Source of the DNA: a virus
UHGV virus genome: UHGV-0251712
DNA: 16,144 bases
Reading direction: 5' to 3' (one strand)
The translations under genes were made by a program, and so were the position numbers. Below the pieces are notes generated by a model that was not told where the DNA came from, searched no databases, and saw only the letters and a program-made list of their open reading frames with translations. Shown piece after piece: positions 1 through 16,144 of this stretch; within the stretch, counting starts at the first letter, position 1, and each line of letters opens with the position of its first letter.

Positions 1-151
1 CAGCCTCTATGAACTTCGCGGCGGTTTCCTGATTCAGCTCCTTCGGGATGATATGCCCACGGCACAGCGTGCTGAAATTGCTCTGCATCCGGTTACGCTC
101 CTTCGTCGTCTTGGTCAGGTAGAGGTAGCAGGTGTGCTTCAGGTACGGACG
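1..151 (-). pseudogene. traG: Internal fragment of a Bacteroidetes conjugative-transposon TraG (VirB4-type conjugation ATPase); no start or stop in window
   Basis: The minus strand reads PYLKHTCYLYLTKTTKERNRMQSNFSTLCRGHIIPKELNQETAAKFIEA and runs off the left edge. I recognise this as the N-terminal region of CTnDOT-family TraG. It is absent from the ORF track because it has no Met or stop. Confidence 0.6.
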
Positions 152-297
152 GACGGCAAAGCCGGACTGATAGAGCGTTACTTCTCGCTCATGCCCGAAG
201 GCGACACGACCTTGCAGGACATTGACCTCTCGGCGAGGGAAATGCGCATCGGCGACAACCGCCTGTGCCTGCACACCCTGTCCGACGCGGAAGACCT
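152..297 (+). pseudogene. traG: Second traG fragment on the opposite strand; encodes the part of TraG lying a few tens of residues downstream of fragment 1
   Basis: DGKAGLIERYFSLMPEGDTTLQDIDLSAREMRIGDNRLCLHTLSDAEDL (inside ORF 53..346) matches my memory of CTnDOT-type TraG. The similarity stops at 297/298, where TraG would continue with ..LPG... The rest of ORF 53..346 is read-through into unrelated DNA. Confidence 0.6.
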
Positions 298-526
298 GAT
301 TAAAAGCGCTCATAACACATCTGTCGGCCAGAAGGCGCGCCTCTGAGTTATCCGACGGACATACCGGGAACAGTGTAATTTCCCGGCAGGAGCGAAAAAT
401 TTGAAAGGCGCATCTTACTCTTTTCGCTTTCAAAAAAAGAGTGGTCTTCGCGTCAACACACATGTCCGTCGGATAACTCAGAGGCGCGCCTTCTGGCCGA
501 CAGATGTGTTATGAGCGCTTTTAATC
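298..526. repeat. Perfect 65-bp inverted repeat (arms 298-362 and 462-526) around a 99-bp spacer
   Basis: Checked base by base: 298-362 (GATTAAAAGCGCTCATAACACATCTGTCGGCCAGAAGGCGCGCCTCTGAGTTATCCGACGGACAT) is the exact reverse complement of 462-526. The match ends on both sides (297 vs 527, 363 vs 461). The spacer has its own small hairpin, CCGGGA(364-369)/TCCCGG(381-386). Confidence 0.95.
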
Positions 527-545
527 TTCATTACGGAGTTTCTGC

Positions 546-684
546 GTGCGTGCCGATAAGTCATTAAGCCCGTTTGAAATCCGGGTATACCGCCATAACC
601 GCATTGTGCATGGTACTCGGGTCGCGCTGGCATTCCTGCTCACTTTTCTCATTATCCGCCTGTTTACTATCCCGGAAAGCACCT
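546..684 (+). pseudogene. yeeA: 5' fragment (GTG start plus about 46 codons) of yeeA (FUSC-family inner membrane protein), inverted relative to its normal orientation next to sbmC
   Basis: [45 protein letters not shown] matches my memory of the E. coli YeeA N-terminus. GGAG lies 8 nt upstream of the GTG. In E. coli yeeA is on the same strand as sbmC; here it is on the opposite strand and stops at 684. Confidence 0.65.
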
Positions 685-1043
685 TCCTGCAAGAGGCTAT
701 TAAAGAACTGATACCAGGGTTTAGCAAAATCATCACCGACTACACGAGCTACCGCCACCGCATACTGACCACCTGAAATTTCTGTCAAAATGACGCCCTC
801 ACTGTTTTCGGGAAGCGTAAAGTAACCCGGCACCGTCACGACGGTGTCGCAGCGTAATTTTTCGGCGGGTGTTTCATCTGGATTGTCGTAATAGACAGCA
901 ACCCACTCCTTCGGCACAATATTTTTGCTATCTACCCACATCATCAACTGCTCAAAGCCTTTCTTTACCGTCTGTTCCCACGGGCCAACGAGATGGAAAC
1001 CTGCAACGGTACGTTTCTCTTCCTGCTTAATCTCGTAGTTCAT
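685..1043 (-). pseudogene. sbmC: sbmC (gyrI, DNA gyrase inhibitor) truncated: codons 1-119 of about 157 present, authentic C-terminus missing
   Basis: [38 protein letters not shown]...[13 protein letters not shown] is SbmC. After codon 119 the ORF (564..1043) reads EGAFRDSKQ..., which is antisense yeeA rather than the SbmC tail (DSAYEML...). Confidence 0.9.
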
Positions 1044-1057
1044 GACGCCTCCATTAA

Positions 1058-1077
1058 TACTGTTTTTATATACAGTA
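1058..1077. promoter_or_regulatory. LexA (SOS) box upstream of sbmC
   Basis: TACTGTTTTTATATACAGTA fits CTG-N10-CAG with TA flanks and lies 15-34 bp upstream of the sbmC ATG. sbmC is a known SOS gene. Confidence 0.85.
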
Positions 1078-1161
1078 TAATTGCAAAATTAAAACCACAA
1101 GGAATGAGTGTTGATTATGCGAGCAGACTCGCACTCCTGCCAGTCTGCTGCAAAAGAAAGG

Positions 1162-2334
1162 TCAGGCCTTATGGTGGAAATAATCACTCAGGCGAGAAAA
1201 CATGCTGCCTTCCCCGACAGATTCCAGGGTAACCAGCGGCCAGTGCGCCACCTGTTTATCACGGTCGTAAAGTTCAATTTCCCCTACCCGCTGATGGGCG
1301 CTAATTGGCGCGGTGAGTTCTTTACCATCAAGGGTATATTTGGCTTTGATATGTGGAATTTCGGCTTTCGGTAGCACCATCCAGAACTCTTGTTCCGTTC
1401 CCAGGGCGATATTTTCTTTATCGCCATACCAGATGCGTTCCGTACCGACCTTTTTCCCACGGTGCAAAATTTGCACCGTAGTAAAGTTTTGTTGCCCCCA
1501 ACGCAGTAATTTTCTTGCCTCTTCCTCACGACCTTTTGCGCTGTCAGCACCCATTACCACTGCAATGAGACGACGCTGCCCATCTACAGCCGAAGCAATG
1601 AGATTAAACCCGGCACCAGAAGTATGACCCGTTTTCAGGCCGTCAACATTCATGGTTTTATCCCACAATAACCCGTTACGGTTTTGCTGGGTGATACCGT
1701 TCCAGGTGAGGCTTTTCTCACTGTACATATGATAAAACTCGGGCTCGCCGTGGATGATAGCACGAGAAAGCACAGCTAAATCATAAGCCGAGCTATGCTG
1801 GCCAGGTGCATCCAGACCATACACTGTTTCAAAATGCGTATCCTTGAGATGCAGCTTCTCGGCATAGTTGTTCATCATTTCAACAAACTGCCGTTGCCCA
1901 CCGGCAATATAGTCAGCCAGAGCAACACAAGCGTCATTTCCGGAATCCACAATTAAACCACGGCTTAAATCACGTACCGATACGCGATCGCCCTCTTTCA
2001 AAAACATCAGTGAAGAACCGACAAACACCGGATTATCTTTCGCCCACGCATCGCGCCCCACGGTGACAATATCGTCTGGCGTAATGCGATGACTATCGAT
2101 AGCGCGATCCACGACATAACCCGTCATCAGCTTTGTCAGGCTGGCGGGATTGCGCTGTTGATGCTCATTACCCGCGGTGAGGATCTGTCCGGTGGTGTAA
2201 TCCATCAGTACCCAGGACCCGGCATGAATCTCTGGAGGCTGAGGTGAAAAATGAATGTTTTCCGCCGCAAAACCAGACGATAAGTTAAAAACGAACAAAG
2301 AAGCAGCAATAATAAGACGGCGTTTCAACAGCAA
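1162..2334 (-). CDS. dacD: D-alanyl-D-alanine carboxypeptidase DacD (PBP6b)
   Basis: 390-aa ORF with a signal peptide (MLLKRRLIIAASLFVFNLSSGFA) and the SLTK (SxxK), SGN and KTG motifs. Recognised as E. coli DacD. sbmC-dacD-sbcB synteny and spacing fit the K-12 arrangement. Confidence 0.95.
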   Translation of the reverse strand: MLLKRRLIIAASLFVFNLSSGFAAENIHFSPQPPEIHAGSWVLMDYTTGQILTAGNEHQQRNPASLTKLMTGYVVDRAIDSHRITPDDIVTVGRDAWAKDNPVFVGSSLMFLKEGDRVSVRDLSRGLIVDSGNDACVALADYIAGGQRQFVEMMNNYAEKLHLKDTHFETVYGLDAPGQHSSAYDLAVLSRAIIHGEPEFYHMYSEKSLTWNGITQQNRNGLLWDKTMNVDGLKTGHTSGAGFNLIASAVDGQRRLIAVVMGADSAKGREEEARKLLRWGQQNFTTVQILHRGKKVGTERIWYGDKENIALGTEQEFWMVLPKAEIPHIKAKYTLDGKELTAPISAHQRVGEIELYDRDKQVAHWPLVTLESVGEGSMFSRLSDYFHHKA

Positions 2335-2536
2335 ACCCTCAGGAGTTTCAAATAGCTGTTCTTTTTACGGAAATACTTATGAACTGGCTGGAATAAAGTG
2401 CAAGAAAATGTGACTACCCTCGCATTTTTATCTGACATGATCTGTTGCCACTCGCTGTCAAATTGTTGCGCTAAAGCTGATTAGCACGGTGATATTTGAT
2501 ACTCTGGCAGACAGCAGAAATAACGGATTTAACCTA

Positions 2537-2599
2537 ATGATGAATGACGGTAAGCAACAATCTACCTTTTTGTTTCACGATTACGCGCAACACCCCTGA
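2537..2599 (+). pseudogene. sbcB: sbcB (exonuclease I) 5' stub: 16 authentic codons, then phage DNA and a stop
   Basis: MMNDGKQQSTFLFHDY is the SbcB N-terminus. After 2585 the sequence reads AQHP-stop instead of ETFGTHP.... The breakpoint is at 2585/2586. Confidence 0.85.
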
Positions 2600-2901
2600 G
2601 AACCGCCATGAACAAGGGTTTCATGATTTGTGATTTTAGTTTGGTACGCAATTTGGTACACAACACAATTTTCACTTCAGCGGGTAGTCATCAAACTCAC
2701 CATAACGAGCATCGTTAATGATGTATGTGATCACCACAAACATCACATCTGGACTAGTTCCGCTTTCATGCGCAGGTATTTGTTCACGCCTCCCTTTCTG
2801 CAAATCATAAAGATGAGATTTTGGGGTTTTGGGATATCTTTTATCCGCAGTTCTCTATCCATTATGCAAACCAGTAATGAACCATCACCGTGTGATAGTG
2901 A

Positions 2902-2973
2902 GGCATCTGCCACGATAAGCGCAGAGAAATGATGCAGTGGTGGGCGGACTGGATTGATGAGAAGGTGGAGTGA
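2902..2973 (+). pseudogene. Possible 3'-terminal remnant (about 23 codons) of a second, different P4-family integrase gene
   Basis: GICHDKRREMMQWWADWIDEKVE-stop resembles the conserved C-terminal ..ERR.MMQ.WADYLD.. tail of P4/CP4-57-type integrases. An in-frame stop lies immediately upstream (2899-2901), and I could find no further int similarity upstream. Confidence 0.35.
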
Positions 2974-3205
2974 ACCACCTTAACCACTATCGAAGAGCAC
3001 AAAGCCTTGCAATCCAGTACAAAACTTTGTTTGTCTCATCAACTACCGCAAGTATCGATCGATGGAGCCTTGGATGATAGAATAAATTCGTAGCACTTTT
3101 TTTTAAAGTATCATCTCGCTCATGGTTACGTGATAGAAAAAGGACAAAATAATCTTAAATTTAAAAGCATATAAATCATACAAATAAAATTGTGGTGGGT
3201 GCGTA

Positions 3206-4204
3206 ATGTCTGATATTCGACAAAATAGAATAGAGTTAAATGAAGTGCATATAGCTCGCTCCATGGCTATATTTCTAGTTGTTTTACTTCATTCTTCAGG
3301 TGCTTTTTTTATGCAGTTTGGAGATCATTGGTGGATTGTTAATTTATACAGTTCTTTTTCAAGGCAGTGTATAGGTCTTTTTTTTCTTATCACTGGATAC
3401 CTATTTTATGAAAAAAACATAAACCCAACAGCACACCTAAAAAAAGGAGTGTCGAGATTGATAATACCATTCATATTTTGGTGGGTGGTATATTATATCT
3501 ACAATACAGAGATTAACAACAAATCATATAATTCTATATTTCAACCAAGTGAGGTACACCTTTGGTTTATGTATGCATATATTTGTATATATATGTTTTT
3601 ACCAATAATTTGCAACTCATTAAAACACATACCAACATATTACATTTTAATTATTGTAAGCATGCTTTTTTACTCAAATTCCATTGTCCCTGTAGTTGAT
3701 AAAACGATAATGAAGGTAACATGGTTTGATGTAAAACTAGTGTCTGAAAATGGGATATATATTCTTATTGGGGCAATAATAAGGAGATATAACGATAAAA
3801 TAAAAAAATGCAATGCAGTGATACCATTGGTGATTATTGTTATGTCGTGCCTGTTAACATCAATGGCATCTAGTTGGTGGTCTGAAATAACAGGCAGGCC
3901 TGAGCAGTTTTTCTTTAAAAATACATCTCCACTTGTATTAATATGTGTTATTTCTTCATTTACATTATGCATGTCATACTCAAAAATAATTAGCAAAAGA
4001 TTAATGAATTTATTTACATCAATATCAAATGTTTCATTTGGTATATACTTCGTCCATTTCTTTTTTGTTAGAGAAATTAGACTCGGGTATAATCAAGAAA
4101 ACGCATATTTCATGATACCATTGCTAACAATCATTTATTTTTTAATGTCATATTGCATATCAATAATTCTAAGCAAGATCCCTTTGCTTAGAAAAGTAAT
4201 ATAA
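3206..4204 (+). CDS. Integral-membrane acyltransferase (acyltransferase_3 family, Oac-like O-antigen O-acetyltransferase candidate)
   Basis: 332 aa and polytopic, with many hydrophobic segments. The N-terminal region RIELNEVHIARSMAIFLVVLLHSSG is typical of the family that includes phage Sf6 Oac. It is very AT-rich and sits between att and the tailspike, the usual slot for O-antigen modification genes in P22-like phages. Confidence 0.8.
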   Translation: MSDIRQNRIELNEVHIARSMAIFLVVLLHSSGAFFMQFGDHWWIVNLYSSFSRQCIGLFFLITGYLFYEKNINPTAHLKKGVSRLIIPFIFWWVVYYIYNTEINNKSYNSIFQPSEVHLWFMYAYICIYMFLPIICNSLKHIPTYYILIIVSMLFYSNSIVPVVDKTIMKVTWFDVKLVSENGIYILIGAIIRRYNDKIKKCNAVIPLVIIVMSCLLTSMASSWWSEITGRPEQFFFKNTSPLVLICVISSFTLCMSYSKIISKRLMNLFTSISNVSFGIYFVHFFFVREIRLGYNQENAYFMIPLLTIIYFLMSYCISIILSKIPLLRKVI

Positions 4205-6451
4205 TTATGGATTGTTAACCTTCCATCTTTTATCATAGTAATGCAAATATCCCTGAGACGTTAGTGTCATATGGACAATCGCTTGGGATATTTGCGCGTT
4301 CTGAAAATTAACTCTAATAAATACTTGAGTGCCAATTGTTATTTTTGATACAGATATCCCGTCAAGAGTCTTGTCTCCTTGTATTTTATTAACCCAAACA
4401 CCTGACGAAGACAAGGTTGCCTGATCCTTTCCGCTTATACTAAATATAATTTTACCTCCTGTTGCCAGTGAGGTGTTTACTCCATTTTGAGATATTGGAA
4501 TTATTGTAATTTCACCAGCAATGAAAACACCATTTTTGTATTTAGATACCTCACCTTGTTCACAAATTAAAATATCAATACATCTACCCCATGGTACTAG
4601 GATTGTTGCATTTTCAGTTTTTACTTGTGGATATACAGCTGAAACACCTGCAGATTCGAAATTTTTTGCTGATAAAACAACTCCGTCAGATCCATTTCTA
4701 AATCCCATTCCTGTATGATCACCGTATGTCCTTCCATGAGAGATGAATCCTCTTACATACTCTTCGGATACTGCGCTACCAGTGGTTTCCTTCTGAAAGA
4801 TAAATGTTTCACCAAAAGAAAAACCACGACATTGGTATTGGCTCTGATAATTTTCTGAGTTCTTAAAAAAGGAAATGCCTTTATATGCTGTTACATAGCC
4901 AGATCTAAATTGAACGGAAACAGGGGTTGTTTGTTCATCTGGAGGTAACTCCACAAAATGTGTAACATTTTGGCTGTTTGATTCCTGTAACCATACAGAA
5001 ACACCATCTATAATCATGGTTGAAAATCTACTGTTTATTTCTAACTCAGAAAAATCAAGAACATGATCACCTGTAACACCCTCAACTCCAAACCCATCAA
5101 TACTTAAAGACCTGAACTGATAGAATTTATGCGGTAACTCACAACCATCAGCTGCAATATTCATTGCGCTAGTGTACATTAATGGGTAAGGACTTATAAT
5201 TGGTTCATATGTTTCTCTATCTATTGCAGCCCCCCAAAGATACCCAACATTACAATGTCTTGCCCAGTTGGAAGAGAATGTAGTAGATGTGCCAGCCAAA
5301 CCGAAACCATAGATACAATCATATGCTTGGTTGTTTGTAACATTACTGACAAAGCATGATAAGGGAAGTGCAAATTTATAATGTAGAAATATGTTATTTT
5401 TAATATCATATTCACTACCCCCGCCAAAGGTTTGTGTTTGACCAGAAATGGCCAATGGGCTACCTGAATATTCATCGTCAGCGTTGCGAAAACACATATT
5501 CTTTACTTTAAGATTGTGCCCCCAACTTCCCATAACAAAACCACCACTTCCTGATGTATAAACAATACTTTTTTGTGGATTAATCCCATATAGATTTAGA
5601 CTAATCCCTTCCCATCTAAACTGGCTAATGTCAATTTGAGTGTTACCAATATATATAGGCTGGTCTATGAAAACAGGAAGTTTAGTTAGATAAGCTTTAT
5701 TAAGTGCTAATCCATCATTTGTTACACCTGTTAAATCAACGCCCCCCATGCTTGGCGCTCTAGGATACCCTGTGGCCTGAATAGTACTCCAGTCAATATA
5801 TGGAGCATCCATCCACGCTCCAAACATACGTGGTGTTACGTACCCCTTACCTTGAAGATCACGTTTCCAGCGTTTACCACCCACAGTGACAATGACCATG
5901 CCGTTATCATCTGCAGAAGTAGAATCTGTGAAATCGGCCACAAACAGACCACCACCAGTATCACCTGATACTGTCGGCTTCATGCCTGTAGTGTGGAAGT
6001 CGACGAAAATCTTTTGCTGATCTCGCTCAGGCTCAATTGTCCTTAACATTGCTATATCAGGGCATGTCCCGATGTATTTAAGACCGTCTTCCCCTGATAG
6101 AGATACTTTAAGCTGATCAGGATCATATTTAAGAACATTCGGAAAATAGAACTGCTGTGCACCATATGCATCATAAACAGCCATAGAATGGCCTTGCACA
6201 GTTACGAACTTGGCAATCTGTCCGTTATATACCGGATATCCAGCAGCGTTAATGATGATTGGTTGCGAAACAGGAACGCGAGAACCGTCTTCATTCTCCA
6301 CATAAACCTGAATCTGGTTTTCAGGATTTACCGGGTCAGTGTCAATTTTACCGATATAAATTTTGCCATTGGCTACGGCTTTAAAAGAACGAGCCATAGT
6401 GAAGAGTTGCGAAGGCATGCTTACCACAACATTTGCGGTGATATCTGACAT
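4205..6451 (-). CDS. P22-family tailspike: conserved N-terminal head-binding domain (6113-6451) plus a divergent AT-rich receptor-binding domain (4205-6112)
   Basis: [56 protein letters not shown]...NVLKYDPDQ is nearly the Sf6/HK620/P22 gp9 N-terminal domain. The true start is the ATG at 6451 (GGAG 8 nt upstream), not 6499. The C-terminal roughly 635 aa resemble no tailspike I can recall. Confidence 0.9.
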
Positions 6452-6572
6452 TTCATTGCTCCAGACGAATGATATGATGCAACCATGATGTGATTGCATA
6501 CCGAAATGGTACTATTGAGTATTTATCCAGTAGGTTACGATGCCATTCCACCCAACTGGTGAGGCATCAAGG

Positions 6573-6833
6573 ATGTACAGCAAATACGACGAGGCGCAGT
6601 TTCACTTGAGACTTCCGCATGAACTCCACGCGAAAATTAAGCAGCGTGCGAAGATGAATAACAGGTCGCTGAACTCAGAGATAATTGCAGCGATTGAAGA
6701 ATCATTGGCTAAACAAAGCTCTGCATCTGTTTACATTGACGATGCAGAGCGTATGGCAGAACAACAATCTGATATGGTTAAGAAAATTGTCTTTGATACG
6801 CTCAAGGAGCTATATAAAAAAGACAGCAGCTAA
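6573..6833 (+). CDS. mnt: Mnt-like (Arc/MetJ ribbon-helix-helix) repressor
   Basis: MYSKYDEAQFHLRLPHELHAKIKQRAKMNNRSLNSEIIAAIEESLAK...DDAERMAEQQSDMVKKIVFDTLKELYKK aligns along its length with P22 Mnt (..NDAERLADEQSELVKKMVFDTLKDLYKKTT). The start is the ATG at 6573 with GAGG upstream, not 6540. Confidence 0.85.
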   Translation: MYSKYDEAQFHLRLPHELHAKIKQRAKMNNRSLNSEIIAAIEESLAKQSSASVYIDDAERMAEQQSDMVKKIVFDTLKELYKKDSS

Positions 6834-6853
6834 CCATCAGTTACGGAGGATTT

Positions 6854-6931
6854 ATGCAAAGAGATATGCTGAACATTGCGTTCTACATATTTGGTTTTTG
6901 CACGTTCCTGGTGTTTGCGAAGCTATTCTGA
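6854..6931 (+). CDS. Small hydrophobic peptide (25 aa) downstream of mnt
   Basis: MQRDMLNIAFYIFGFCTFLVFAKLF has a strong SD (GGAGGA, about 4 nt before the ATG) and one predicted TM helix. Its 3' end overlaps the stop of the convergent gp16-like gene. It is below the ORF-track size cutoff. Confidence 0.35.
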   Translation: MQRDMLNIAFYIFGFCTFLVFAKLF

Positions 6932-9316
6932 CAACGCATCAGACTTGGCACCCTGAGTAAGGGCGTTAATGGCCTTTTGCGCCTGCTGCATGGCTTTCTC
7001 AAACGCTGTTGATCCGCGTGGGGTGTTTGCCATTCGGAGCATTGCATTTCTGAATGGCTCGCTCTCATAGGCGCGAGTAAGAAGTCCGTAGCTTACTGCT
7101 GCGCCAGTTGTCGCCGGGTTCATTGCCGTCCCATATCCGATAATGAACGGGATGGTTTGCTGCCCTGTTGGTGTTGTTACTGCCGCTTTTGCTGCCTGCT
7201 GAGTGGACTGAAGGTAGTTTTTCAATCCTTTCAGATAAGCGGCTTCCTGACCTTTAAATGTGATGCCAGTCTGGTTTTGCAGGATGTTAAGCTGTCGAAG
7301 GAACTGGTCAGGTGAACCACCTGATTTCTCTATCGCCTTTCCAATAATGCCATTGCGCATTTGCGCTCTTCCAACGCGACCAACTGAGTTATACAGCGTC
7401 TTAATTTCCGATTTGTTCTTGCTGAATAGCATGTTGTTGACAACTTCCGGCGTCAGGTCGCCTTTCATGAGAACATTCTTCAGCCTGGTATTCTTTAGTT
7501 TCGCCGCTTCGTCAGCGTATACGGCATTGGCCTGCTGATATTTACGGAGAGTATCGTTGCCAAGATTCTGACCAATGGCACCATTGATATCGTCTGTCAT
7601 CGCCTTGTAAACGCGCTGAATGGCAGCATCGGAACGGTTTGGTAACACTGGTCGTTCACCCTTCACGTCCATTCTGAACTGGCTGCGCAGATCGCTTAAT
7701 TGCTTCAAATCCAGATTTACCGGACCATCAGGACCAGCATTGCGAACAAGCTCATCACGATATGACTGAAGTTTTGAAATAGTCTCGTTATCAGCAACCT
7801 TACCAAGCTTCTGCAGGTTAGATATTTCTGTATCAATCTGCTGAATTGCTCGCGCAGGCTGAATGTTTACTCCAGCCATAGCATTCTGAACCTGCTCCAG
7901 TCGATTACCGGCGGCACGACGAATTCCTGATGTTTTCGCTTTAAGGCTGTCAATAACAACAGATGGATCATACTCACCGAATTTATCAGCAAATCTCTGC
8001 ACCAACTGGCTTCTCGCTTCCTGTTGCGTTGCTCTCATTCCGCTTGTGCCAGCCAGAGGAATATTTTCTGCTGTAGTCTGCGCCATTTTTCCGACGCGGG
8101 AAGTAGGCTGTAACAGGTCTGTGGTGTGCAGAGGAACTCCTTCACGCTCTGCAAATCTGATAGCTTGCTGTGCTTCTGGCGCGATAGCACCACGAACGCC
8201 ACGATAAGCAGCACCTAATCCACGTCCGGCAGCGTTAATAGCACCGCCAGCAAGTACACCAACGCCTAAATCGGTGGCGAGTGCTTCCGCATCATCTTTC
8301 GCACTATTTGCAGCAAGTGATCCAACTGCGTTTTCTGCTAGAAGGCGAGTTGCCCCCTGAGCAATTCGACCAGCAAGTGTTGGTGCCTGTGCTGCCGCTC
8401 TCTCAACGCCAGCAGGAGTGAGGTAAGGCAATGCTTCAGCAAATACCCTTCCCTCTGTCGTTTGTGGAGTCAGCGCGCCTTGCCGAAGGCCAAAGTCCCG
8501 CTCTAATCCCTGCGTTGTTACTCGTGGTGCTGGTTGATATGTACCATCGCCAATGCCGAGTTTACCGCCAGCCCAAGCCGCCGCGCTTGTTACAGCATCA
8601 GTGAGTTCAGCAGGTATGTTCGCTACGTTGATTCCTGCCTGTAGTATGCCGCGCCCGGTTTCAGCAAGTCCATTACCAAGGTCAGACATTATTCCGCCTT
8701 GCTGCTGAACAGGTTTCGGTGCGACAGAACTTACGGGTTGAGGTGGCTGCTGACTGGCTGCCTGCTGCTCAATCTGAGCAAATGGATTATTTGGGTCTGA
8801 CTGCACACCTGATGCCGATACTTGTTCGGATGACTGTACTTCCAGTTGTGCAAACGGGTTGTTAGGGTCTTGCTGAGGATGTACCTTTGCAGAGGTGGCG
8901 CGCTGTTCGACTGTTGAGTCTGTCACCGGGTCACCCGCCCATTGAGCAAAGCGATCATCAACGTAACCGCGGCCTTCAGGTCCTGGCGTATATTCACCAC
9001 GCTTTGCCTTCATAACGTTGCCGGGACCGTCGTGATAAGCCTGAAGAGCGTCACGCCAGTTACCAAACTGCTGGTACATCTTTGCCAGATAGCGCGCGCC
9101 AGCGTCAGCCTGATATTCGGGGTTTTGCATTTGCTCATCGGTATAACCCATATCACGCCATGTCCCAGGCATGACCTGAGTCAATCCTACAGCCCCGGCG
9201 GAGCTTACTGCGGCAGGGTTGTAAGAAGACTCCTTGGCACCCAGTGCAGTCATCAACCCTTCTGGCACACCGTAACGTGCGCCAGCCTGCTCTAACAAAT
9301 CACGGTAATTAGCCAT
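6923..9316 (-). CDS. DNA-ejection (injection) protein in the gp16 position, with an N-terminal soluble lytic transglycosylase (SLT) domain
   Basis: 797 aa. The N-terminus GAKESSYNPAAVSSAGAVGLTQVMPGTW...AYHDGPGN carries the SLT motifs (catalytic Glu-Ser, GLxQ, AYNxGxG-like). Position is immediately downstream of the gp20-like gene. Confidence 0.8.
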   Translation of the reverse strand: MANYRDLLEQAGARYGVPEGLMTALGAKESSYNPAAVSSAGAVGLTQVMPGTWRDMGYTDEQMQNPEYQADAGARYLAKMYQQFGNWRDALQAYHDGPGNVMKAKRGEYTPGPEGRGYVDDRFAQWAGDPVTDSTVEQRATSAKVHPQQDPNNPFAQLEVQSSEQVSASGVQSDPNNPFAQIEQQAASQQPPQPVSSVAPKPVQQQGGIMSDLGNGLAETGRGILQAGINVANIPAELTDAVTSAAAWAGGKLGIGDGTYQPAPRVTTQGLERDFGLRQGALTPQTTEGRVFAEALPYLTPAGVERAAAQAPTLAGRIAQGATRLLAENAVGSLAANSAKDDAEALATDLGVGVLAGGAINAAGRGLGAAYRGVRGAIAPEAQQAIRFAEREGVPLHTTDLLQPTSRVGKMAQTTAENIPLAGTSGMRATQQEARSQLVQRFADKFGEYDPSVVIDSLKAKTSGIRRAAGNRLEQVQNAMAGVNIQPARAIQQIDTEISNLQKLGKVADNETISKLQSYRDELVRNAGPDGPVNLDLKQLSDLRSQFRMDVKGERPVLPNRSDAAIQRVYKAMTDDINGAIGQNLGNDTLRKYQQANAVYADEAAKLKNTRLKNVLMKGDLTPEVVNNMLFSKNKSEIKTLYNSVGRVGRAQMRNGIIGKAIEKSGGSPDQFLRQLNILQNQTGITFKGQEAAYLKGLKNYLQSTQQAAKAAVTTPTGQQTIPFIIGYGTAMNPATTGAAVSYGLLTRAYESEPFRNAMLRMANTPRGSTAFEKAMQQAQKAINALTQGAKSDALSE

Positions 9317-10648
9317 TTACTGCCCCAAAGATGGAAGATATCCGTAGCGATTAATGAAGTCGATTGACAGCTCGGGGTGCTGCTTCAGGTAATCTATAGA
9401 AGCCTGAGGCGCTTCCACTCGCTTGATACCGTTTTGCTGAACGTACTTACCAACCGCCTCATTACGCTTCTGGTTGAGCGTGTTCAGGATGACGCCAGCG
9501 TTGCGACGAAAGGACTCCTCGCTCTGCGAGTTCTGCAGCGAACCAACAGCCTGGTCGAGCTTTTTGCCCTCGGCATCAGAAAGTGCGCCCATGCCTCGCA
9601 TGGCCTGAACCGCTGTCAGGTATGCTTGGGATTTAAAGGTATCAAGTCGTGCCTGAGTGTCTGCAGCCTGTGAGCCTGGAACGTTGGGGATTACTCCACG
9701 TAAGCCTGTAATGCTCTTAAGTGAAGGAGAACTAACGATATCGTTCAGAGTGAACATGCTGGTTGTGAGGGTGTTGATGCCGTCTTTGTAGCCATCATTT
9801 AGCGCTTGCTGCTTCTGCTGCAACTGCTGGTTGTTGGCTGCTATGCGGCTCTGTATTTCCTGGCGCTTCAGGTCGTTAGTTTCTGCTGATAGCATCCGGT
9901 CAAGGCGCTTATTTTCGTTGTTAATGCGGTTTGTTTCTGCGTCCAGATTAATGCGCTGCTGACCTAAATTCGCCTGGATATCTTGCCCGCGCATTGTGAT
10001 TGCCTGATTCCGAGCGGCGGTTTGCGAATCCAGATCCTGACCGCGCATGGTAACCTGGCGACCCTGCATTTTATCCTGTAGGTCAAAGTATTTTTCGGGT
10101 CCGAGACTGTTCATCCCCAGGTGATCGACAAATTCGCCGAACTGCCGCGGGTTCTGTTGGTACATCTGAGCGACATCCTGAGGATTAACGCCAACACGAG
10201 CTAACTCACCGGCGTTGTTTTGCAGCCATGATTGCATTGCTTCTGGAGACGATGACGCAAGGCGTGCGCCAGCCGCTAAGGTGCCGATAGAATTACGCTG
10301 ATCTTCATCAATGAATCCCATGCCTTTACGAACGGATTCAATCTGTTCTGGATATTGAGTAGCCAACTGACGCAAAGCACCGCGATCACCAGACGCATAA
10401 GCATTAGCGTATGCCTGCTGAAATTCTTTCTGCCGCTGAGCCTGCTTTTCCTGCTGAAACACCCCCGCAATACCTGAAAGGCCTTGCAAAGCAGTCAGCC
10501 CAACATTGTTAGCGCCTGAACGCTCAATATCATTGTTCTGCCTGATAAGCTGAAGCGTATTGCCGATGTCATTTACGCTCGGAGCGTTTGAGTTGACGCC
10601 GCCGATACCAGCCAACAATCCGCCGTTTGTTCCTTGCCAAGTAGCCAT
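9317..10648 (-). CDS. DNA-transfer/ejection protein, P22 gp20-like
   Basis: 443 aa, Gln/Ala-rich and coiled-coil-like. Its stop abuts the start of the downstream gene (9316/9317), and AAGGGG precedes the ATG. Assigned mainly by position in the gp7-gp20-gp16 cluster plus N-terminal resemblance to gp20. Confidence 0.7.
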   Translation of the reverse strand: MATWQGTNGGLLAGIGGVNSNAPSVNDIGNTLQLIRQNNDIERSGANNVGLTALQGLSGIAGVFQQEKQAQRQKEFQQAYANAYASGDRGALRQLATQYPEQIESVRKGMGFIDEDQRNSIGTLAAGARLASSSPEAMQSWLQNNAGELARVGVNPQDVAQMYQQNPRQFGEFVDHLGMNSLGPEKYFDLQDKMQGRQVTMRGQDLDSQTAARNQAITMRGQDIQANLGQQRINLDAETNRINNENKRLDRMLSAETNDLKRQEIQSRIAANNQQLQQKQQALNDGYKDGINTLTTSMFTLNDIVSSPSLKSITGLRGVIPNVPGSQAADTQARLDTFKSQAYLTAVQAMRGMGALSDAEGKKLDQAVGSLQNSQSEESFRRNAGVILNTLNQKRNEAVGKYVQQNGIKRVEAPQASIDYLKQHPELSIDFINRYGYLPSLGQ

Positions 10649-10657
10649 GATTACCCC

Positions 10658-10822
10658 TTAAAACAACGAGCCAAGCAATCCGATACCAGCACCAATGCCA
10701 GCGCCCCAAGGCGTTGATGTTCCCAAAAGGCTGGCAAGACCTGCACCGGCAATCGCACCAGACGTGCCACCGCTAATTGCAGTCTGAAGACTTGATGGTT
10801 TAACCAAAGAGTAGTTGGCTTT
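10658..10822 (-). pseudogene. 3' stub (about 55 codons) of a gp7-position ejection protein gene
   Basis: The Gly/Ala-rich hydrophobic C-terminus ...SLQTAISGGTSGAIAGAGLASLLGTSTPWGAGIGAGIGLLGSLF ends just before the gp20-like gene. The upstream part of track ORF 10658..10855 is antisense ssb. Assignment is by position only. Confidence 0.4.
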
Positions 10823-10835
10823 GGGGTGACGTGAA

Positions 10836-11267
10836 GTGCAGCTGCACGACGGCAACCTGACAATAGCAACGTCAGAACAATGGCGAGATAAAAATACTGG
10901 CGAGCAAAAGGAATTGACTGAATGGCATCGTGTTGCTGTATCCGGGAAACTGGCTGAGGTCGTGGGGCAGTATGTGAAAAAAGGTGATCAGATTTATTTC
11001 GAGGGAATGCTGAGAACCAGAAAGTGGAAAGACCAGTCAGGGCAAGACCGTTACACAACCGAGGTTCATGTCGGAATTAATGGCGTGATGCAAATGCTTG
11101 GCGGCATTGGCGACAGCAAACAACAAGCAGCCAGCAGGCAATCACAGAAGCCACAGCAGCAATCATCACCAGCACAACACAACGAACCTCCGATGGATTT
11201 TGACGACGATATACCCTTTGCACCAGTAACTCTCCCCTTCCCTCGTCACGCTATTCACGCAATTTAA
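10836..11267 (+). pseudogene. ssb: Single-stranded DNA-binding protein lacking roughly the first 25-30 codons of the OB fold
   Basis: ..[70 protein letters not shown]...[11 protein letters not shown] is canonical SSB from about residue 30 onward. An in-frame TGA at 10827-10829 lies upstream, and only a GTG at 10836 is available as a start. Confidence 0.8.
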
Positions 11268-11280
11268 TCAGGAGAAAATC

Positions 11281-11577
11281 ATGCCAGCGCCTCAGTATGG
11301 TGCGGATGACCCGCGCCGCTGTTCCGGCAATTCCGTATCGGAGGTGCTGGATAAATTCAGAAAAAACTACGACCGGATAATGTCGCTACCGCAGGAAACA
11401 AAAGAGGAAAAGGAATTTCGCCACTGTATATGGCTTGCAGAGAAAGAAGAACGAGAGCGAATTTACCAGACATCAATCCGACCATTCCGCAAAGCCACAT
11501 ATACCCACTTCCCTGAATATATCGACCCGCGCCTGCGTAATTACCGCTCACGCTATGGCTCTATCAGTAATGACTGA
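11281..11577 (+). CDS. Hypothetical early-left operon protein (98 aa)
   Basis: GGAGAA SD lies just upstream of the ATG. It follows ssb by 13 bp, and its stop overlaps the next start (ATGACTGA). Confidence 0.55.
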
Positions 11578-11755
11578 GGAATTTACCATGAGAGGACTTG
11601 CATACAATCCCGGCATTCTTCCGGCAGAAATGATTATTCGCCAACGCGTAAAGCCAATGCCATCGAGAGAGGAATTGCTTAAGAGAAATTCTTTTCCGTC
11701 AGTAAATCAAAACAAATATCTGAATGCGATGTGGCGTAAAGGAGGCAAGCAGTGA
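11570..11755 (+). CDS. Hypothetical small protein (61 aa; alternative start 11588 gives 55 aa)
   Basis: The upstream part of track ORF 11435..11755 overlaps the previous gene. The ATG at 11570 overlaps its stop, and the ATG at 11588 has GAGGA 8 nt upstream. Confidence 0.45.
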
Positions 11756-12051
11756 GTGTATGTCTTATTGATAAACGTCGACGTGGGCAACAAATACCAT
11801 CTGTTGGAATGCCGAATCACACATGGTTTTGCGTACTTGATATCGATGGTATGGATGCGTTGGTTGACACTCGTCATTACTGCGATACCGCAACAGCTAC
11901 TCCGGCGAAAGCAAAGAAAATGGCTGCTCTGATAGAAAACTGGACTCCACCTGATGGTTGGTGCAATGGGAATGATCGAGATTGGCACGAAAAAATGAAG
12001 GGCTATATCTGCGATTTTTTACGTAAATGCAACGGATTCAGGGTGATGTGA
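11752..12051 (+). CDS. Hypothetical Cys/His-rich protein (99 aa)
   Basis: The GTG start overlaps the previous stop (GTGA), suggesting translational coupling. It ends 1 nt before the next ATG. Confidence 0.5.
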
Positions 12052-12052
12052 C

Positions 12053-12742
12053 ATGAGCAAGATTGCCTATCAGGCACTGCGTGAAAAGGCAGAGAAAGCA
12101 ACGTGTGGTGTGTGGTCGCTCGAATATGGAGAGGGCCGATTTGATGGTGATGATGCGCTAATTCATCGTGAAGTTGCTGGATATATTCCCATTTGCAGAA
12201 TTGAAGGAGCGCATCCTGAAAGCGGTTTCGATGAAGATTTCCAAATGGAACAGCAGGCCAATGCTGAATTCATCGCAGCAGCCAGTCCAGCTACCGTGCT
12301 GGCACTACTGGATGAACGGGAAAGAAACCAGCAGTACATCAAACGCCGCGACCAGGAGAACGAAGATATTGCGCTAACGGTAGGGAAGCTGCGTGTTGAT
12401 CTGGAAGCCGCAGAGAAGCGCAACGCAAAATTACAAAGCGAGAATGCATACATCCGCAACAGGTACAAAGAACTGGACCTATTAATCGGGAAAAACATTC
12501 TGGTCATGCAGGCTGCCATTATCGAATGGCAATCTACTGGCGACGCTAAAAGCGGACTGGCATGGATTTATAACACACTGTTTGGCCCAGGCGAATTGCC
12601 GGACGAATCTGAGAAAGATGCTCAGGCCTACTTTAATCGCAAAAATGAACCGATTGACGAAAAGCTTATGGAGCTTCACAAGTGGTTTTGGGAACAAAGT
12701 GAAGCCGAGCGTGTCGCTGGCATTCGCATCAAAGGAGAGTGA
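12053..12742 (+). CDS. Ead/Ea22-like family protein
   Basis: The N-terminus ALREKAEKATCGVWSLEYGEG..., a central coiled coil (KLRVDLEAAEKRNAKLQSENAYIRNRYKELD) and the ea-region location match lambdoid Ead/Ea22-like proteins as I remember them. Confidence 0.7.
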   Translation: MSKIAYQALREKAEKATCGVWSLEYGEGRFDGDDALIHREVAGYIPICRIEGAHPESGFDEDFQMEQQANAEFIAAASPATVLALLDERERNQQYIKRRDQENEDIALTVGKLRVDLEAAEKRNAKLQSENAYIRNRYKELDLLIGKNILVMQAAIIEWQSTGDAKSGLAWIYNTLFGPGELPDESEKDAQAYFNRKNEPIDEKLMELHKWFWEQSEAERVAGIRIKGE

Positions 12743-12743
12743 T

Positions 12744-12941
12744 ATGGATAAAAACACCACTGCTTACTGGAATCTGTCACTTGATACCGAATGCCCAAAA
12801 TGCGGTCACAATTTCGATCTGCTTTGTGACGCTGATTTCTGGGAGTTTTCTGGAGCTAAACAGGCATGTGAAGAAATAAAAGGTTACAAAACATGCTGTC
12901 CGGAATGTAACCATGAATTTAAAACAGATTTCATATATTGA
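12744..12941 (+). CDS. Small zinc-ribbon protein (65 aa)
   Basis: MDKNTTAYWNLSLDTECPKCGHNF...CCPECNHEF has two CxxC pairs. The ATG at 12744 has GGAGAG upstream. The N-terminal part of track ORF 12582..12941 overlaps the Ea22-like gene and is discounted. Confidence 0.55.
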   Translation: MDKNTTAYWNLSLDTECPKCGHNFDLLCDADFWEFSGAKQACEEIKGYKTCCPECNHEFKTDFIY

Positions 12942-12951
12942 GGCATAACAA

Positions 12952-13398
12952 ATGACCACTATTACCAAAGAACGTATTGAATTGTTCATTAAAAATCCGC
13001 TTGAAAACGGGCTTACTCGTGGCGAACAAATGGAACTGGCACGAATTGCACTGGCATCACTGGAACGCGAACTGATTCGCCACGAGCATGCCAAATGGTC
13101 TGACTCCACATTTGGCTGCGTTGGCCCCATTGGTCCACTGAAACACCTCTCAAAAGAGACACTGGAAGCCGCAGCCGAACCAGACGATCTTAGCGAGTGG
13201 GCTGATATGCAGTTTCTGTTGTGGGATGCACAGCGCCGTGCTGGCATCAGCGATGCTGAAATTACCGCTGCTATGGAAGATAAATTGAAGATCAACATGG
13301 AGCGCCAGTGGCCTGAGCCAAAAGATGGTGAGCCTCGCTTGCACATTAAAGAACTCGGCAACTCTCCGGTAATTCCGGATGGTTCGGATGATGGTTAA
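12952..13398 (+). CDS. DUF550 / MazG-like dATP-dGTP pyrophosphohydrolase-domain protein
   Basis: HEHAKWSDSTFG...GPLKHLSKETLEAAAEPDDLSEWADMQFLLWDAQRRAGISDAEITAAMEDKLKINMERQWPEP matches the DUF550 pattern common in lambdoid ea regions, as I remember it. Confidence 0.6.
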   Translation: MTTITKERIELFIKNPLENGLTRGEQMELARIALASLERELIRHEHAKWSDSTFGCVGPIGPLKHLSKETLEAAAEPDDLSEWADMQFLLWDAQRRAGISDAEITAAMEDKLKINMERQWPEPKDGEPRLHIKELGNSPVIPDGSDDG

Positions 13399-13433
13399 CC
13401 ATTTTTGATGTAAAAACATCCTTCTCTGAGGGC

Positions 13434-13462
13434 TTGCTCCTCAATAAGTTTGGTTTTATAAT
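13434..13462 (+). promoter_or_regulatory. Candidate sigma70 promoter for the NYN cassette
   Basis: TTGCTC (13434-13439), a 17-nt spacer, then a perfect TATAAT (13457-13462), about 85 nt upstream of the NYN ORF. Sequence inspection only. Confidence 0.4.
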
Positions 13463-13547
13463 TACGCGCAATGAAGGTGGGCGGTTCGCTACTATACAAG
13501 AGGGGTGTACCCCGCGAACTTAACCCACCACCACTTTCCTCTCTACT

Positions 13548-14195
13548 ATGAATTGCAAATCAATGACCAGAAAATATGCCATCATGATCGATGCTGGTTT
13601 TTTGCGTGCAAAATTAGGCACAAAAGATAAGCCAATCGATGCGGAAGTAATCAAAGTATTTGTAGAAAAACTAACAAAAAGGCATGAACTAGAAGGCATG
13701 ATTTTGCACCGTGTTTATTATTACGATGCAGAGCCGCTTACCGGAATACAGACGCATCCGATTAGTGGAGAGAAAATTGACTTCTCTGAAACAGAAGTTT
13801 CTAAAAGAAATAAAGCCATGCTTGATGAGTTGAAAAGAACTCCTTTTTTTGCAGTAAGACTTGGAGAGACAAACTTTCGAGGATGGAAGGTTGACCCATG
13901 GGCATTAAAGAGCAGTGACTCTAAAACTTCTTCCATTAATGCCTACAATGTTAAGCCTAATGTTCAGCAGAAAGGCGTTGATATGCGTATTGCGTTAGAT
14001 ATGTCATCAATGTCATTAAAAAAACAGGCAGATATATATGCTTTGGTGACTGGTGATTCAGATTTTGTTCCAATTATAAAATTTGCTAGGAAAGAAGGCC
14101 GACAGATTTTTCTATACACACTGGGACATAGTGTCAAGCAGACGATGTATGAACATTCCGATTTGTTAGTGCCAGATACCATGGATAAATTGTGA
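13548..14195 (+). CDS. NYN/LabA-like (PIN-fold) ribonuclease-domain protein, 215 aa (alternative start 13563)
   Basis: The motifs AIMIDAGF (N-terminal Asp), QQKGVDMRIALDM and ALVTGDSDFVPIIKFARKEGRQIF are the conserved acidic motifs of NYN/DUF88 domains. The gene is clearly more AT-rich than the flanking ea genes. Confidence 0.75.
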   Translation: MNCKSMTRKYAIMIDAGFLRAKLGTKDKPIDAEVIKVFVEKLTKRHELEGMILHRVYYYDAEPLTGIQTHPISGEKIDFSETEVSKRNKAMLDELKRTPFFAVRLGETNFRGWKVDPWALKSSDSKTSSINAYNVKPNVQQKGVDMRIALDMSSMSLKKQADIYALVTGDSDFVPIIKFARKEGRQIFLYTLGHSVKQTMYEHSDLLVPDTMDKL

Positions 14196-14374
14196 TTGGA
14201 GCTAGGAATAGGTTAGCCGCGCCTTAATAGATGATCCATTCTGGCAGAAAAAGAACACAAAGAAGTAGCCTAAGTGCCCCCAACTGCATTTACACCCAGG
14301 CCCTCATTGCGGGTCTTTCTATTTACAGAGATGGCTGAGCAGAACGCCAAGAACTGACAACCTGAACGAATACG

Positions 14375-14400
14375 AACCCGCCTAGTGCGGGTTTTCTTTT
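14375..14400 (+). terminator. Intrinsic terminator T1
   Basis: AACCCGC-CTAGT-GCGGGTT stem-loop followed by TTTTCTTTT. Confidence 0.7.
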
Positions 14401-14405
14401 ATCTG

Positions 14406-14430
14406 AACTCGCTACGGCGAGTTTTGTTTT
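14406..14430 (+). terminator. Intrinsic terminator T2 (tandem to T1)
   Basis: AACTCGC-TACG-GCGAGTT stem-loop followed by TTTTGTTTT. It is a paralogous copy of T1 with compensatory stem changes. Confidence 0.7.
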
Positions 14431-14442
14431 ATGGAGATGATT

Positions 14443-14742
14443 ATGGCCTGTTCAACATTCAACCATTTAACGTTACAGAAATACCAGCCAGACCCTGAAG
14501 ATTTATGCTCACTGTGTGGCGGAAATCATGGTAAAGCCGCCATGATCGAATGTAAGGACAAAATCCACATTTGCCTTAATTGCGTTGATGTCCTCGTTGA
14601 TATCAAAAATGAGAGAGAAGATAAAAAGCGTAGCGAGGCTATTCGCGCATTAGATTCATGGATGCGAGATGGGTATAGTGCTGCGCAAATTTATGACTTC
14701 GCAATATCAAAAGGCGAAATACCAGGAGTGCGCATCGAATAA
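14443..14742 (+). CDS. Cys-rich (zinc-finger-like) protein with a possible C-terminal HTH, 99 aa (track start 14431)
   Basis: CSLCGG...CLNCVD are paired CxxC motifs. The C-terminal GYSAAQIYDFAISKGEIPGVRIE looks Xis/HTH-like. GGAGA lies about 5 nt before the ATG at 14443. No family recognised. Confidence 0.5.
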   Translation: MACSTFNHLTLQKYQPDPEDLCSLCGGNHGKAAMIECKDKIHICLNCVDVLVDIKNEREDKKRSEAIRALDSWMRDGYSAAQIYDFAISKGEIPGVRIE

Positions 14743-14782
14743 GACGTAACCAATATTCGAATTGAAGAACTGAAAGAACACC

Positions 14783-14808
14783 AAGCCGCCTGATGGCGGT
14801 TTCTTTTT
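14783..14808 (+). terminator. Intrinsic terminator T3
   Basis: AGCCGCC-TGAT-GGCGGTT stem-loop (one G-U pair) followed by TCTTTTT. Confidence 0.6.
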
Positions 14809-14823
14809 GCCTGGAGAATTAAG

Positions 14824-14928
14824 ATGACCGATACCAGCCTGATTCCTGAGAAAGAAGTGATGAACAAGCTCGGTGTTTCATCACGTCAGACAATCTGGAA
14901 CTATACCAAACGGCACGGATGGATATAG
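14824..14928 (+). CDS. AlpA/Xis-like HTH ORF, only 34 codons; its last 12 nt (last three sense codons plus the stop) lie inside IR-L, so probably truncated
   Basis: MTDTSLIPEKEVMNKLGVSSRQTIWNYTKRHG-WI-stop. It has the AlpA-type HTH (LGVSSRQTIWNY) but lacks the usual ..FP.P.. wing that follows it. GGAGA SD lies upstream. Confidence 0.5.
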   Translation: MTDTSLIPEKEVMNKLGVSSRQTIWNYTKRHGWI

Positions 14929-15189
14929 GTTACTGGCGAACACATGATTTCAGAAGAACGCTTGTTACACGTCTGTCCGAGATGAATGTCGAGCCTCATG
15001 TTACTGAGCGAATGCTCGGTCATGAACTTGGCGGGATAATGTCCGTATACAATAAACACGATTGGATAGAGGCTCAGCGCAAAGCGTATGAGCTTCACGC
15101 TGATAAATTGTTCTGGCACATCAGGAGCATTTCTGATTAACGCCACCGTTAAGTGAAATCATGTGTTCGCCAGTAACCTATATCCATCC
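14917..15189. repeat. Perfect 36-bp inverted repeats (14917-14952 and 15154-15189) flanking a 201-bp segment
   Basis: GGATGGATATAGGTTACTGGCGAACACATGATTTCA at 14917-14952 is the exact reverse complement of 15154-15189. The match ends at both outer and both inner boundaries. Confidence 0.95.
14919..15140 (+). pseudogene. int: Integrase C-terminal catalytic module (73 codons) on the opposite strand from the rest of the gene
   Basis: MDIGYWRTHDFRRTLVTRLSEMNVEPHVTERMLGHELGGIMSVYNKHDWIEAQRKAYELHADKLFWHIRSISD carries the tyrosine-recombinase box II (HDFRRT), the LGH histidine and the Tyr-nucleophile region. Confidence 0.85.
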
Positions 15190-16144
15190 CTCCCCTTATT
15201 CTATTTACGAATCGGTTGGCTGCAGCGATGCTGATCGGTTTGTTTATGTCTTCTCCAGGGAAAAGAACATCATTGTACGTTGTCATGGCCTTATCGAGGA
15301 AAGGCTTAATTTGTTCGAAGATTGGACGGCGGATAACATTACCCATCTTGCTATGCTCTTTCGGTACGGTCCATACGTTGTCCAGCAGGTCAAATTCTGT
15401 CTTTGTTGCCAGCCTAAGCTCTGAGAGCCTCGCCCCCCACAGCATAAGCATCTGATGAAGGAGCTTATTTGACGTAGACGCACGGCTTCTTTCAATAGCA
15501 AGCCAAATCTTAGCCAGTTCGTGATACGACAGTACCCGATCCCCTACCTCAGCGCGGGAGCCGAAGTCCCTTGGCTGGATGCTCATAATTGCGCAACTAT
15601 CTATCAACTGACGCCGCATGCACCAACTAATTGCTGATCTTAGTTGACTTAGCACCTGCCTTGCTCGGCGTGGATTATCTTTTTCTTCTTCGGTAAGCAG
15701 GTCAACCCATTGCTTAACCGTGATAGAAGATGCCGGACGATTAGGAAAGGCGTCATGCATGCGCTTCATAACCGTTGATCGGTAAAGTGCCTGGGTCTTT
15801 TCTCTGAGAGTTGTAGAGACGTAGTTGTCGAACCAGTAGTCGAGACACTGGGCGACCGTCATGGAGTTCTCCACCTTCTCTTCAAAATAAGTGCGTGGAT
15901 CCGTTCCTGAGAAATAGAGCTTTCGCAAGTCAGCAGTGATCTGTCTGGCATCCTTCAAAGACAGGGATGGGTATCGACCAAGCCCAAGTCGATTAGGCTT
16001 GCCATGCCAGCGATAGCGGTACTGGAACTGGATGACCCCCTTCGGTGAAATTCGTACGCTGAGGCCATCGGCATCAGCCACTTCTTGTGGGCCCGAATAT
16101 GGTTTACCATAAATAGTACGCAGTTTTGTGTCGCTTATAGCCAT
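15149..16144 (-). pseudogene. int: P4-type tyrosine integrase, N-terminal 330 codons (arm-binding/DUF4102-like plus core-binding and first catalytic part), ending prematurely just past IR-R
   Basis: MAISDTKLRTIYGKPYSGPQEVADADGLSVRISPKGVIQFQYRYRWHGKPNRLGLGRYPSLSLKDARQ is a classic P4-family integrase N-terminus. The ORF ends ..GGMDIGYWRTHDF-T-stop and lacks the H-x-x-R, His and Tyr residues. Its ATG is the last triplet of the window. Confidence 0.9.

Follow-up and report, generated by a model that had tools for sequence, protein, structure and literature searches.

Inverted Bacteroidales traG fragments joined to rearranged Escherichia coli DNA at the edge of a viral genome entry: a probable artefact rather than inter-phylum gene transfer

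Introduction

TraG of the CTnDOT type is a VirB4-like protein of the Bacteroidota, represented by the profile family TIGR03783. The intact protein has about 830 residues, and in the plasmid records related to the DNA studied here its gene forms part of a tra operon, where it is found between DUF4133/DUF4134 and DUF3876/DUF4141 genes. DNA of Bacteroidales origin can enter a chromosome by the integration of a genuine conjugative or mobilisable element, which would bring with it an integrase, an att site, element ends and intact genes.

Sequences of two origins can also be joined outside the cell. Chimeras that arise in MDA are inverted in 85% of cases, with intervening deletions, and most of them join nearby sites on one molecule (PMC1855051). 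Of the proximal inverted joints, 93.5% show complementarity of 2 nt or more (Lasken and Stockwell 2007, PMC1855051); joints between molecules are less frequent and less complementary (PMC1855051). According to a review, the distances spanned by MDA chimeras peak at 250–300 nt, and the overlaps are mostly of 5–8 nt (PMC9984789). A related product is the strand-split artefact read, which has been explained by annealing at short reverse-complementary sequences when partly single-stranded DNA undergoes library end repair (Haile et al. 2019, PMC6344851).

Here we analyse the virus genome entry UHGV-0251712, a stretch of 16,144 nt that we refer to as the window, in which two pieces of a Bacteroidales traG gene precede a long segment of E. 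coli chromosome. We trace each segment to its source and locate the joints between segments. We then weigh the processes that could have made these joints against one another.

Results

Two pieces of one traG gene lie on opposite strands

The minus strand of window 1–151 translates to RPYLKHTCYLYLTKTTKERNRMQSNFSTLCRGHIIPKELNQETAAKFIEA, and the plus strand of 152–298 to DGKAGLIERYFSLMPEGDTTLQDIDLSAREMRIGDNRLCLHTLSDAEDL (Table 1); both the strand layout and the translations agree with those quoted in a first-pass annotation of this DNA. An NCBIfam profile search placed RPYLKHTCYLYLTKTTKERNRMQSNFSTLCRGHIIPKELNQETAAKFIEA at positions 104–154 of the TIGR03783 profile (E 2.4e-20, 72 bits) and DGKAGLIERYFSLMPEGDTTLQDIDLSAREMRIGDNRLCLHTLSDAEDL at positions 184–230 (E 3e-13, 48.6 bits). 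TIGR03783 was the sole NCBIfam family matched by either peptide, and a Pfam search with the two short peptides returned nothing.

Searching for a Bacteroidales donor with a 31-mer from the second piece, in one genome per species, gave 18 loci, the best of which belongs to Parabacteroides goldsteinii DSM 19448 (L018). Window 1–151 corresponds to 7220→7070 of this locus (150/151 nt, the mismatch being at window position 31) and window 147–298 to 7296→7447 (152/152 nt, no mismatches), which amounts to 99.3–100% identity per piece and ~99.7% overall. The P. goldsteinii gene encodes a genuine TraG, given that it reaches 793.5 bits over its first 413 residues, where the whole-protein cut-off of TIGR03783 is 261.55 bits; neither of the window pieces attains this cut-off. 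BLAST of the window's traG DNA against plasmid records returned Bacteroidales only (Parabacteroides, Bacteroides and Phocaeicola), at 73–93% identity, and the matches fall under genes annotated TraG. The first-pass annotation had proposed the CTnDOT-type TraG assignment, along with a comparison of 1–297 with Bacteroides and enterobacterial sequences; protein and DNA matches alike bear the assignment out, and the comparison gave a Bacteroidales match with none in E. coli records. Zero matches to 1–297 were obtained in 20,395 E. coli records, low stringency included, which rules out that this stretch is normal enterobacterial DNA.

Table 1. Coordinates of the rearranged segments and of the joints between them in the 16,144-nt window
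Feature	Position	Strand or type	Description
traG fragment 1	1..151	-	residues ~104-154 of a Bacteroidales TraG-family conjugative-transposon ATPase; antisense to the window
J1	147..151	strand switch within traG	GGACG, 5 nt common to both parents; ~227-nt jump in the donor gene
traG fragment 2	152..298	+	residues ~180-229, from the gene of fragment 1; sense strand
J2	298..298	Parabacteroides-to-E. coli joint	essentially blunt, one base (G298) common to both sides
sbmC-yeeA intergenic DNA	298..461	-	orientation as expected beside sbmC; 100% identical to Nissle 1917 (L001) 3065->2902
J3	461/462	strand switch	blunt, 0-nt overlap; ~99-nt jump
inverted yeeA 5' piece	462..684	+	84 nt upstream plus codons 1-46, ATG at 546; wrong strand
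J4	684/685	strand switch	imperfect AAGCAC overlap (~6 nt) at 677-682; ~445-nt jump
sbmC, truncated	685..1043	-	ends after codon 119 of 157 and continues into antisense yeeA
J6	14920/21	strand switch	GGAT overlap (4 nt) at 14917-14920; ~299-nt jump
inverted integrase piece	14921..15153	+	233 nt; prophage integrase 3' end plus overlapping HTH gene
J7	15153/54	strand switch	blunt, 0 nt; ~201-nt jump

In every one of the 20 Bacteroidales loci compared, the two traG pieces lie on the same strand, spaced 76 nt apart, and the inverted joint was found in none of the 20. The second piece follows the first by ~30 residues in the intact protein, as the first-pass annotation had stated, and its further observation that two neighbouring pieces of one gene face away from each other holds when set against these collinear loci. 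The inverted joint did not pre-exist in a Bacteroidales donor, since all 20 loci are collinear and a 36-mer spanning J1 was not found in metagenome contigs.

The strand switch within traG, which the first-pass annotation had put in an ACGG repeat, falls in the pentanucleotide shared by the two parents (Table 1). In P. goldsteinii, CGTCC stands at 7070–7074 and GGACG at 7296–7300, with 221 nt between them. The (ACGG)x3 run at window 145–156 is therefore a product of J1. At J2, traG nt ~687 meets E. coli DNA; this is the abrupt change to yeeA-sbmC intergenic sequence that the same annotation had noticed at 297/298, now located at G298. A 35-mer spanning J2 was not found in viral, genome or metagenome contig collections.

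The window holds ~97 residues of TraG, in two pieces on opposite strands, without the start codon and without the ATPase domain of the intact protein. In contrast to the tra operon of the plasmid records, the neighbouring tra genes are missing and E. coli DNA follows from 298 on. The traG sequence in the window is thus a non-functional scrap and not a gene.

The unscrambled E. coli locus

Using the 797-aa phage protein of the window as a guide, we located the unscrambled form of the locus in the E. coli assembly GCA_024502405.1, on contig JALDNO010000012.1 (L036). This contig aligns with window 677–14920 without gaps and carries intact genes for SbmC (157 aa), YeeA (352 aa) and the prophage integrase (392 aa). 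Window 2468–14920 and 15154–16144 are 100% identical to it, and over 685–14920 there are 8 mismatches, all of them in dacD (1801–2467). Five of these 8 substitutions are packed into 21 nt (1801–1821), and five of six sites checked carry Nissle-type bases. Position 1821 is unlike all six reference loci compared and results in the change H170Y in DacD; the exact DacD protein of the window is not on record. The divergence in dacD could be due to a recombination patch or to strain mixing in the consensus. The backbone of the window is otherwise that of an intact natural E. coli lineage, and its differences from relatives are mostly synonymous.

Between dacD and sbcB the chromosome carries a decayed P22-like prophage (window 2913–16144), the tailspike, acyltransferase, gp16 and injection-protein genes of which are intact. 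Its gp7 gene ('DNA transfer protein') breaks off at 10802 and is followed by a 59-nt remnant (10802–10860) and a truncated ssb. The prophage joints at 10802/10803 and ~10853–10860 occur in 0/5,426 complete E. coli genomes. An artefact can be dismissed for both of them, as they are present base for base in GCA_024502405.1 and are thus natural deletions in the decayed prophage. The module of tailspike and acyltransferase genes (2913–6200) is rare: a single one of the 5,426 complete E. coli genomes has it (strain 22KM0354, 98.9% identity), and it is also present in several draft or metagenome contigs (L036, L039–L041). The tailspike protein of the window is not on record.

At its right edge (16142–16144) the window stops on the start codon of the integrase, which is encoded on the minus strand; its left edge coincides with no gene boundary. 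Since the right edge lies exactly at the integrase start codon and the left one is not a gene boundary, the left edge can be read as a contig end, and we infer that the window probably begins at a contig end and finishes at a gene edge.

Scrambled DNA between sbmC and yeeA

The E. coli DNA adjoining the traG pieces is rearranged as well, a point that the first-pass annotation had overlooked. The inverted 5' piece of yeeA (462–684) is 99.6% identical to a Nissle-type allele and gives rise to a perfect 65-nt inverted repeat, with arms at 298–362 and 462–526. Beyond the point at which sbmC is truncated, the reading frame remains open in antisense yeeA, resulting in a fusion ORF of 159 aa (564–1043). 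The scramble has removed 123–129 nt of natural sequence. Put back in natural order, window 298–2742 is covered to at least 80% in 5,275 of the 5,426 complete E. coli genomes; J3 and J4 as they stand in the window are spanned by 0/5,426.

Compared with the unscrambled locus, window 298–684 differs at 8 sites and by one indel over 322 bp of natural sequence, and it represents the Nissle-type allele. A mixture of two E. coli strains would account for this, which makes it a weak hint at a second-strain origin for 298–684; the backbone too has a Nissle-type patch, in dacD, and natural recombination would give an equal picture.

A second event in the prophage integrase

About 14 kb from the event at the left end, and similar to it in style, a further inverted piece interrupts the prophage integrase (14921–15153, Table 1). 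It stands in place of 263 nt of natural sequence and shortens the integrase to the first 330 of its 392 residues. Among the 5,426 complete E. coli genomes, none spans this arrangement. The piece matches the natural locus at 100% identity. We considered whether it derives from another allele, and this was ruled out: the 3 mismatches reported by BLAST lie in the left flank, at 14911–14916.

Six joints are peculiar to the window

Exactly six joints are peculiar to the window (J1, J2, J3, J4, J6 and J7), and five of them are local strand switches. The order of segments in the window was tested in 5,426 complete E. coli genomes across 1–700, 415–510, 635–735 and 14850–15260, and none of the six joints was present in any. 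At the protein level, a set of 153 billion gene positions contains no record of the SbmC fusion, the truncated integrase or a 97-aa chimeric ORF.

The MDA-type inverted chimera is recognised by adjacent segments that map to opposite strands of one reference, less than 10 kb apart and typically separated by a few hundred nucleotides. Adjacent segments are on opposite strands of one reference at J1, J3, J4, J6 and J7, and the partners are all proximal, with jumps of 99–452 nt that lie well inside the 10-kb limit. The overlaps at these five joints are 5, 0, ~6 (imperfect), 4 and 0 nt, respectively. Neither an overlap assembler nor a k-mer assembler could make a join from shared sequence of at most 6 nt, so the joints must already have been in the input sequences, and k-mer- or repeat-induced misassembly is ruled out on the same ground. 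Apart from the repeats that the inverted pieces themselves create, the window has no long repeats. Joints of the restriction/ligation type (3C or Hi-C) were likewise rejected, as no palindromic site and no fill-in duplication is present at any joint.

Discussion

The segments of the window are identical or nearly so to P. goldsteinii traG and to E. coli DNA, the six joints between them are found in this window only, and the E. coli locus exists in natural, intact form. From this we infer, with a probability of about 0.9, that the traG-E. coli chimera is a non-biological artefact of some kind. In-vitro strand switching by a polymerase is the process that we consider likeliest to have made the joints, at roughly even odds.

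In the sequence of events that we postulate, a gut Parabacteroides with a CTnDOT-type conjugative element would have co-occurred with E. coli in a mixed sample, and the DNA of the two would have been joined outside the cell, during amplification, library making or assembly. The likeliest step would be strand switching by a polymerase, of the kind that produces MDA-type inverted chimeras and strand-split artefacts, in end repair or whole-genome amplification. A growing 3' end would quit its template and re-anneal a few hundred nucleotides off on the strand of the same polarity, often through 4–6 complementary bases, and copying back would then give inverted segments with small deletions or duplications. 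The joint between Parabacteroides and E. coli would represent a rarer jump onto another molecule. Finally, the assembler may have retained the chimeric molecules where normal coverage ended, that is at the contig end (1–684) and at one internal spot (14921–15153).

The window resembles MDA inverted chimeras in several respects. First, the second segment is flipped and the partners lie a few hundred nucleotides apart on one molecule. Second, short complementary overlaps are present at three of the five local joints. Lastly, small deletions or duplications separate the partners, and there is an occasional joint to an unrelated molecule. It departs from them in that the other two local joints (J3 and J7) are blunt and in that four joints fall within 700 nt, compared to a reported one per 10–22 kb, although contig ends select chimeric tips. 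With strand-split reads the window shares the presence of both strands within a short distance and of short reverse-complementary sequences, such as CGTCC...GGACG at J1. Such reads have been described from damaged FFPE human DNA and contain a single joint per read, whereas the joints of the window are several, chained and assembled.

The main rival of in-vitro strand switching is a software artefact, which we regard as possible and clearly the less probable of the two. Read pairs or adjacent interleaved records would have been concatenated without reverse-complementing, or would have been mis-oriented by a gap-closing or extension step; at the contig end, two raw read pairs would then follow the backbone, and one mis-oriented read would make up the internal event. 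The layout counts in its favour. Followed on the reverse strand, the left end runs from the backbone through yeeA (223 nt of the top strand, then 164 nt of the bottom strand) into traG (151 nt of the bottom and 151 nt of the top strand), and both pairs map as inward-facing ends of one fragment each, of 323 bp and 378 bp, which are typical library inserts. With 4 nt shared, the traG pieces are both exactly 151 nt long (1–151 and 148–298). Illumina reads often have this length, so that the match speaks for read handling and not for enzymology. Blunt joints at J2, J3 and J7 also agree with concatenation, and the inter-species joint would be merely two unrelated records that happened to be neighbours. 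On the other hand, each of the 4–6 nt overlaps at J1, J4 and J6 is improbable by chance in blunt concatenation, the pieces of 164, 223 and 233 nt misfit 151-nt reads, and the E. coli pair maps no more than 130 nt from the backbone end, which random adjacency of records would not yield. No standard assembler is known to concatenate reads in this manner, which also counts against a software origin.

The lengths of the segments (151, ~150, 164, 223 and 233 nt) bring to mind a further in-vitro route, the blunt ligation of fragments of ~150–250 bp in random orientation during library construction, of the concatemer or proximity-ligation type. Nearby fragments would be favoured and an inter-species ligation would happen occasionally, in line with partners that are all local except one foreign one; the three blunt joints and the presence of both orientations agree with this as well. 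We nevertheless consider ligation improbable. On inspection of the sequence, none of the joints bears the signature of a restriction site or of fill-in, blunt ligation would not be expected to leave the 4–6 nt overlaps that three of them have, and libraries of this type are seldom assembled to 16-kb contigs.

The least probable reading is that the joints are real. End joining or template switching would have mended a break in the E. coli chromosome between sbmC and yeeA, capturing a scrap of Parabacteroides conjugative-transposon DNA and leaving the local inverted duplications as by-products; put in general terms, chromosome breaks would have been repaired by blunt or microhomology end joining together with fold-back synthesis, one of them capturing a 298-nt scrap of P. 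goldsteinii type. Such a history is very unlikely, even though blunt and microhomology joints are what illegitimate recombination leaves behind, the gut is a common habitat of E. coli and Parabacteroides, and the backbone is otherwise that of an intact natural E. coli lineage. It needs at least two independent complex events of one unusual type, 14 kb apart, in sbmC-yeeA and in the integrase, as well as the uptake of foreign DNA that was already scrambled internally. Moreover, the joints are in no other genome or contig searched, the 298-nt scrap is without mobile-element ends and ~99.7% identical to its donor, and the event is situated at the very start of the window, probably a contig end. 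If it were true, the window would hold a direct footprint of inter-phylum DNA capture through illegitimate recombination.

The foreign DNA is of the origin that the integration of a genuine Bacteroidales conjugative or mobilisable element would supply, but the scrap lacks an integrase, an att site, element ends and any intact gene, and it is internally inverted. A genuine acquisition should moreover recur in independent genomes or assemblies and be flanked by collinear host DNA. Neither is seen here: the 5,426 complete genomes and, for J2, the contig collections do not contain the joint, and the flanking E. coli DNA is scrambled over 298–684, with sbmC truncated. The first-pass annotation had preferred a chimera to inter-phylum transfer, and this preference is strengthened by the scrambled E. 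coli DNA, the natural locus, the uniqueness of the joints and the shortness of the foreign scrap. The traG fragments at 1–298 are thus almost certainly no evidence of inter-phylum gene transfer, and their arrangement with E. coli DNA is not a real biological feature.

Taken at face value, the window would document a transfer from Bacteroidota to Proteobacteria, into the chromosome, and reading it as a chimera averts a false call of horizontal transfer. The same reading flags further false rearrangements, namely an artificial SbmC fusion protein, a spurious yeeA fragment and an integrase that is not truly truncated. A foreign scrap at a contig end, combined with host DNA flipped in pieces of ~150–250 nt, is the signature of chimeric input molecules or mishandled reads, and contigs that have a common source with this one merit screening for local flipped pieces and foreign scraps.
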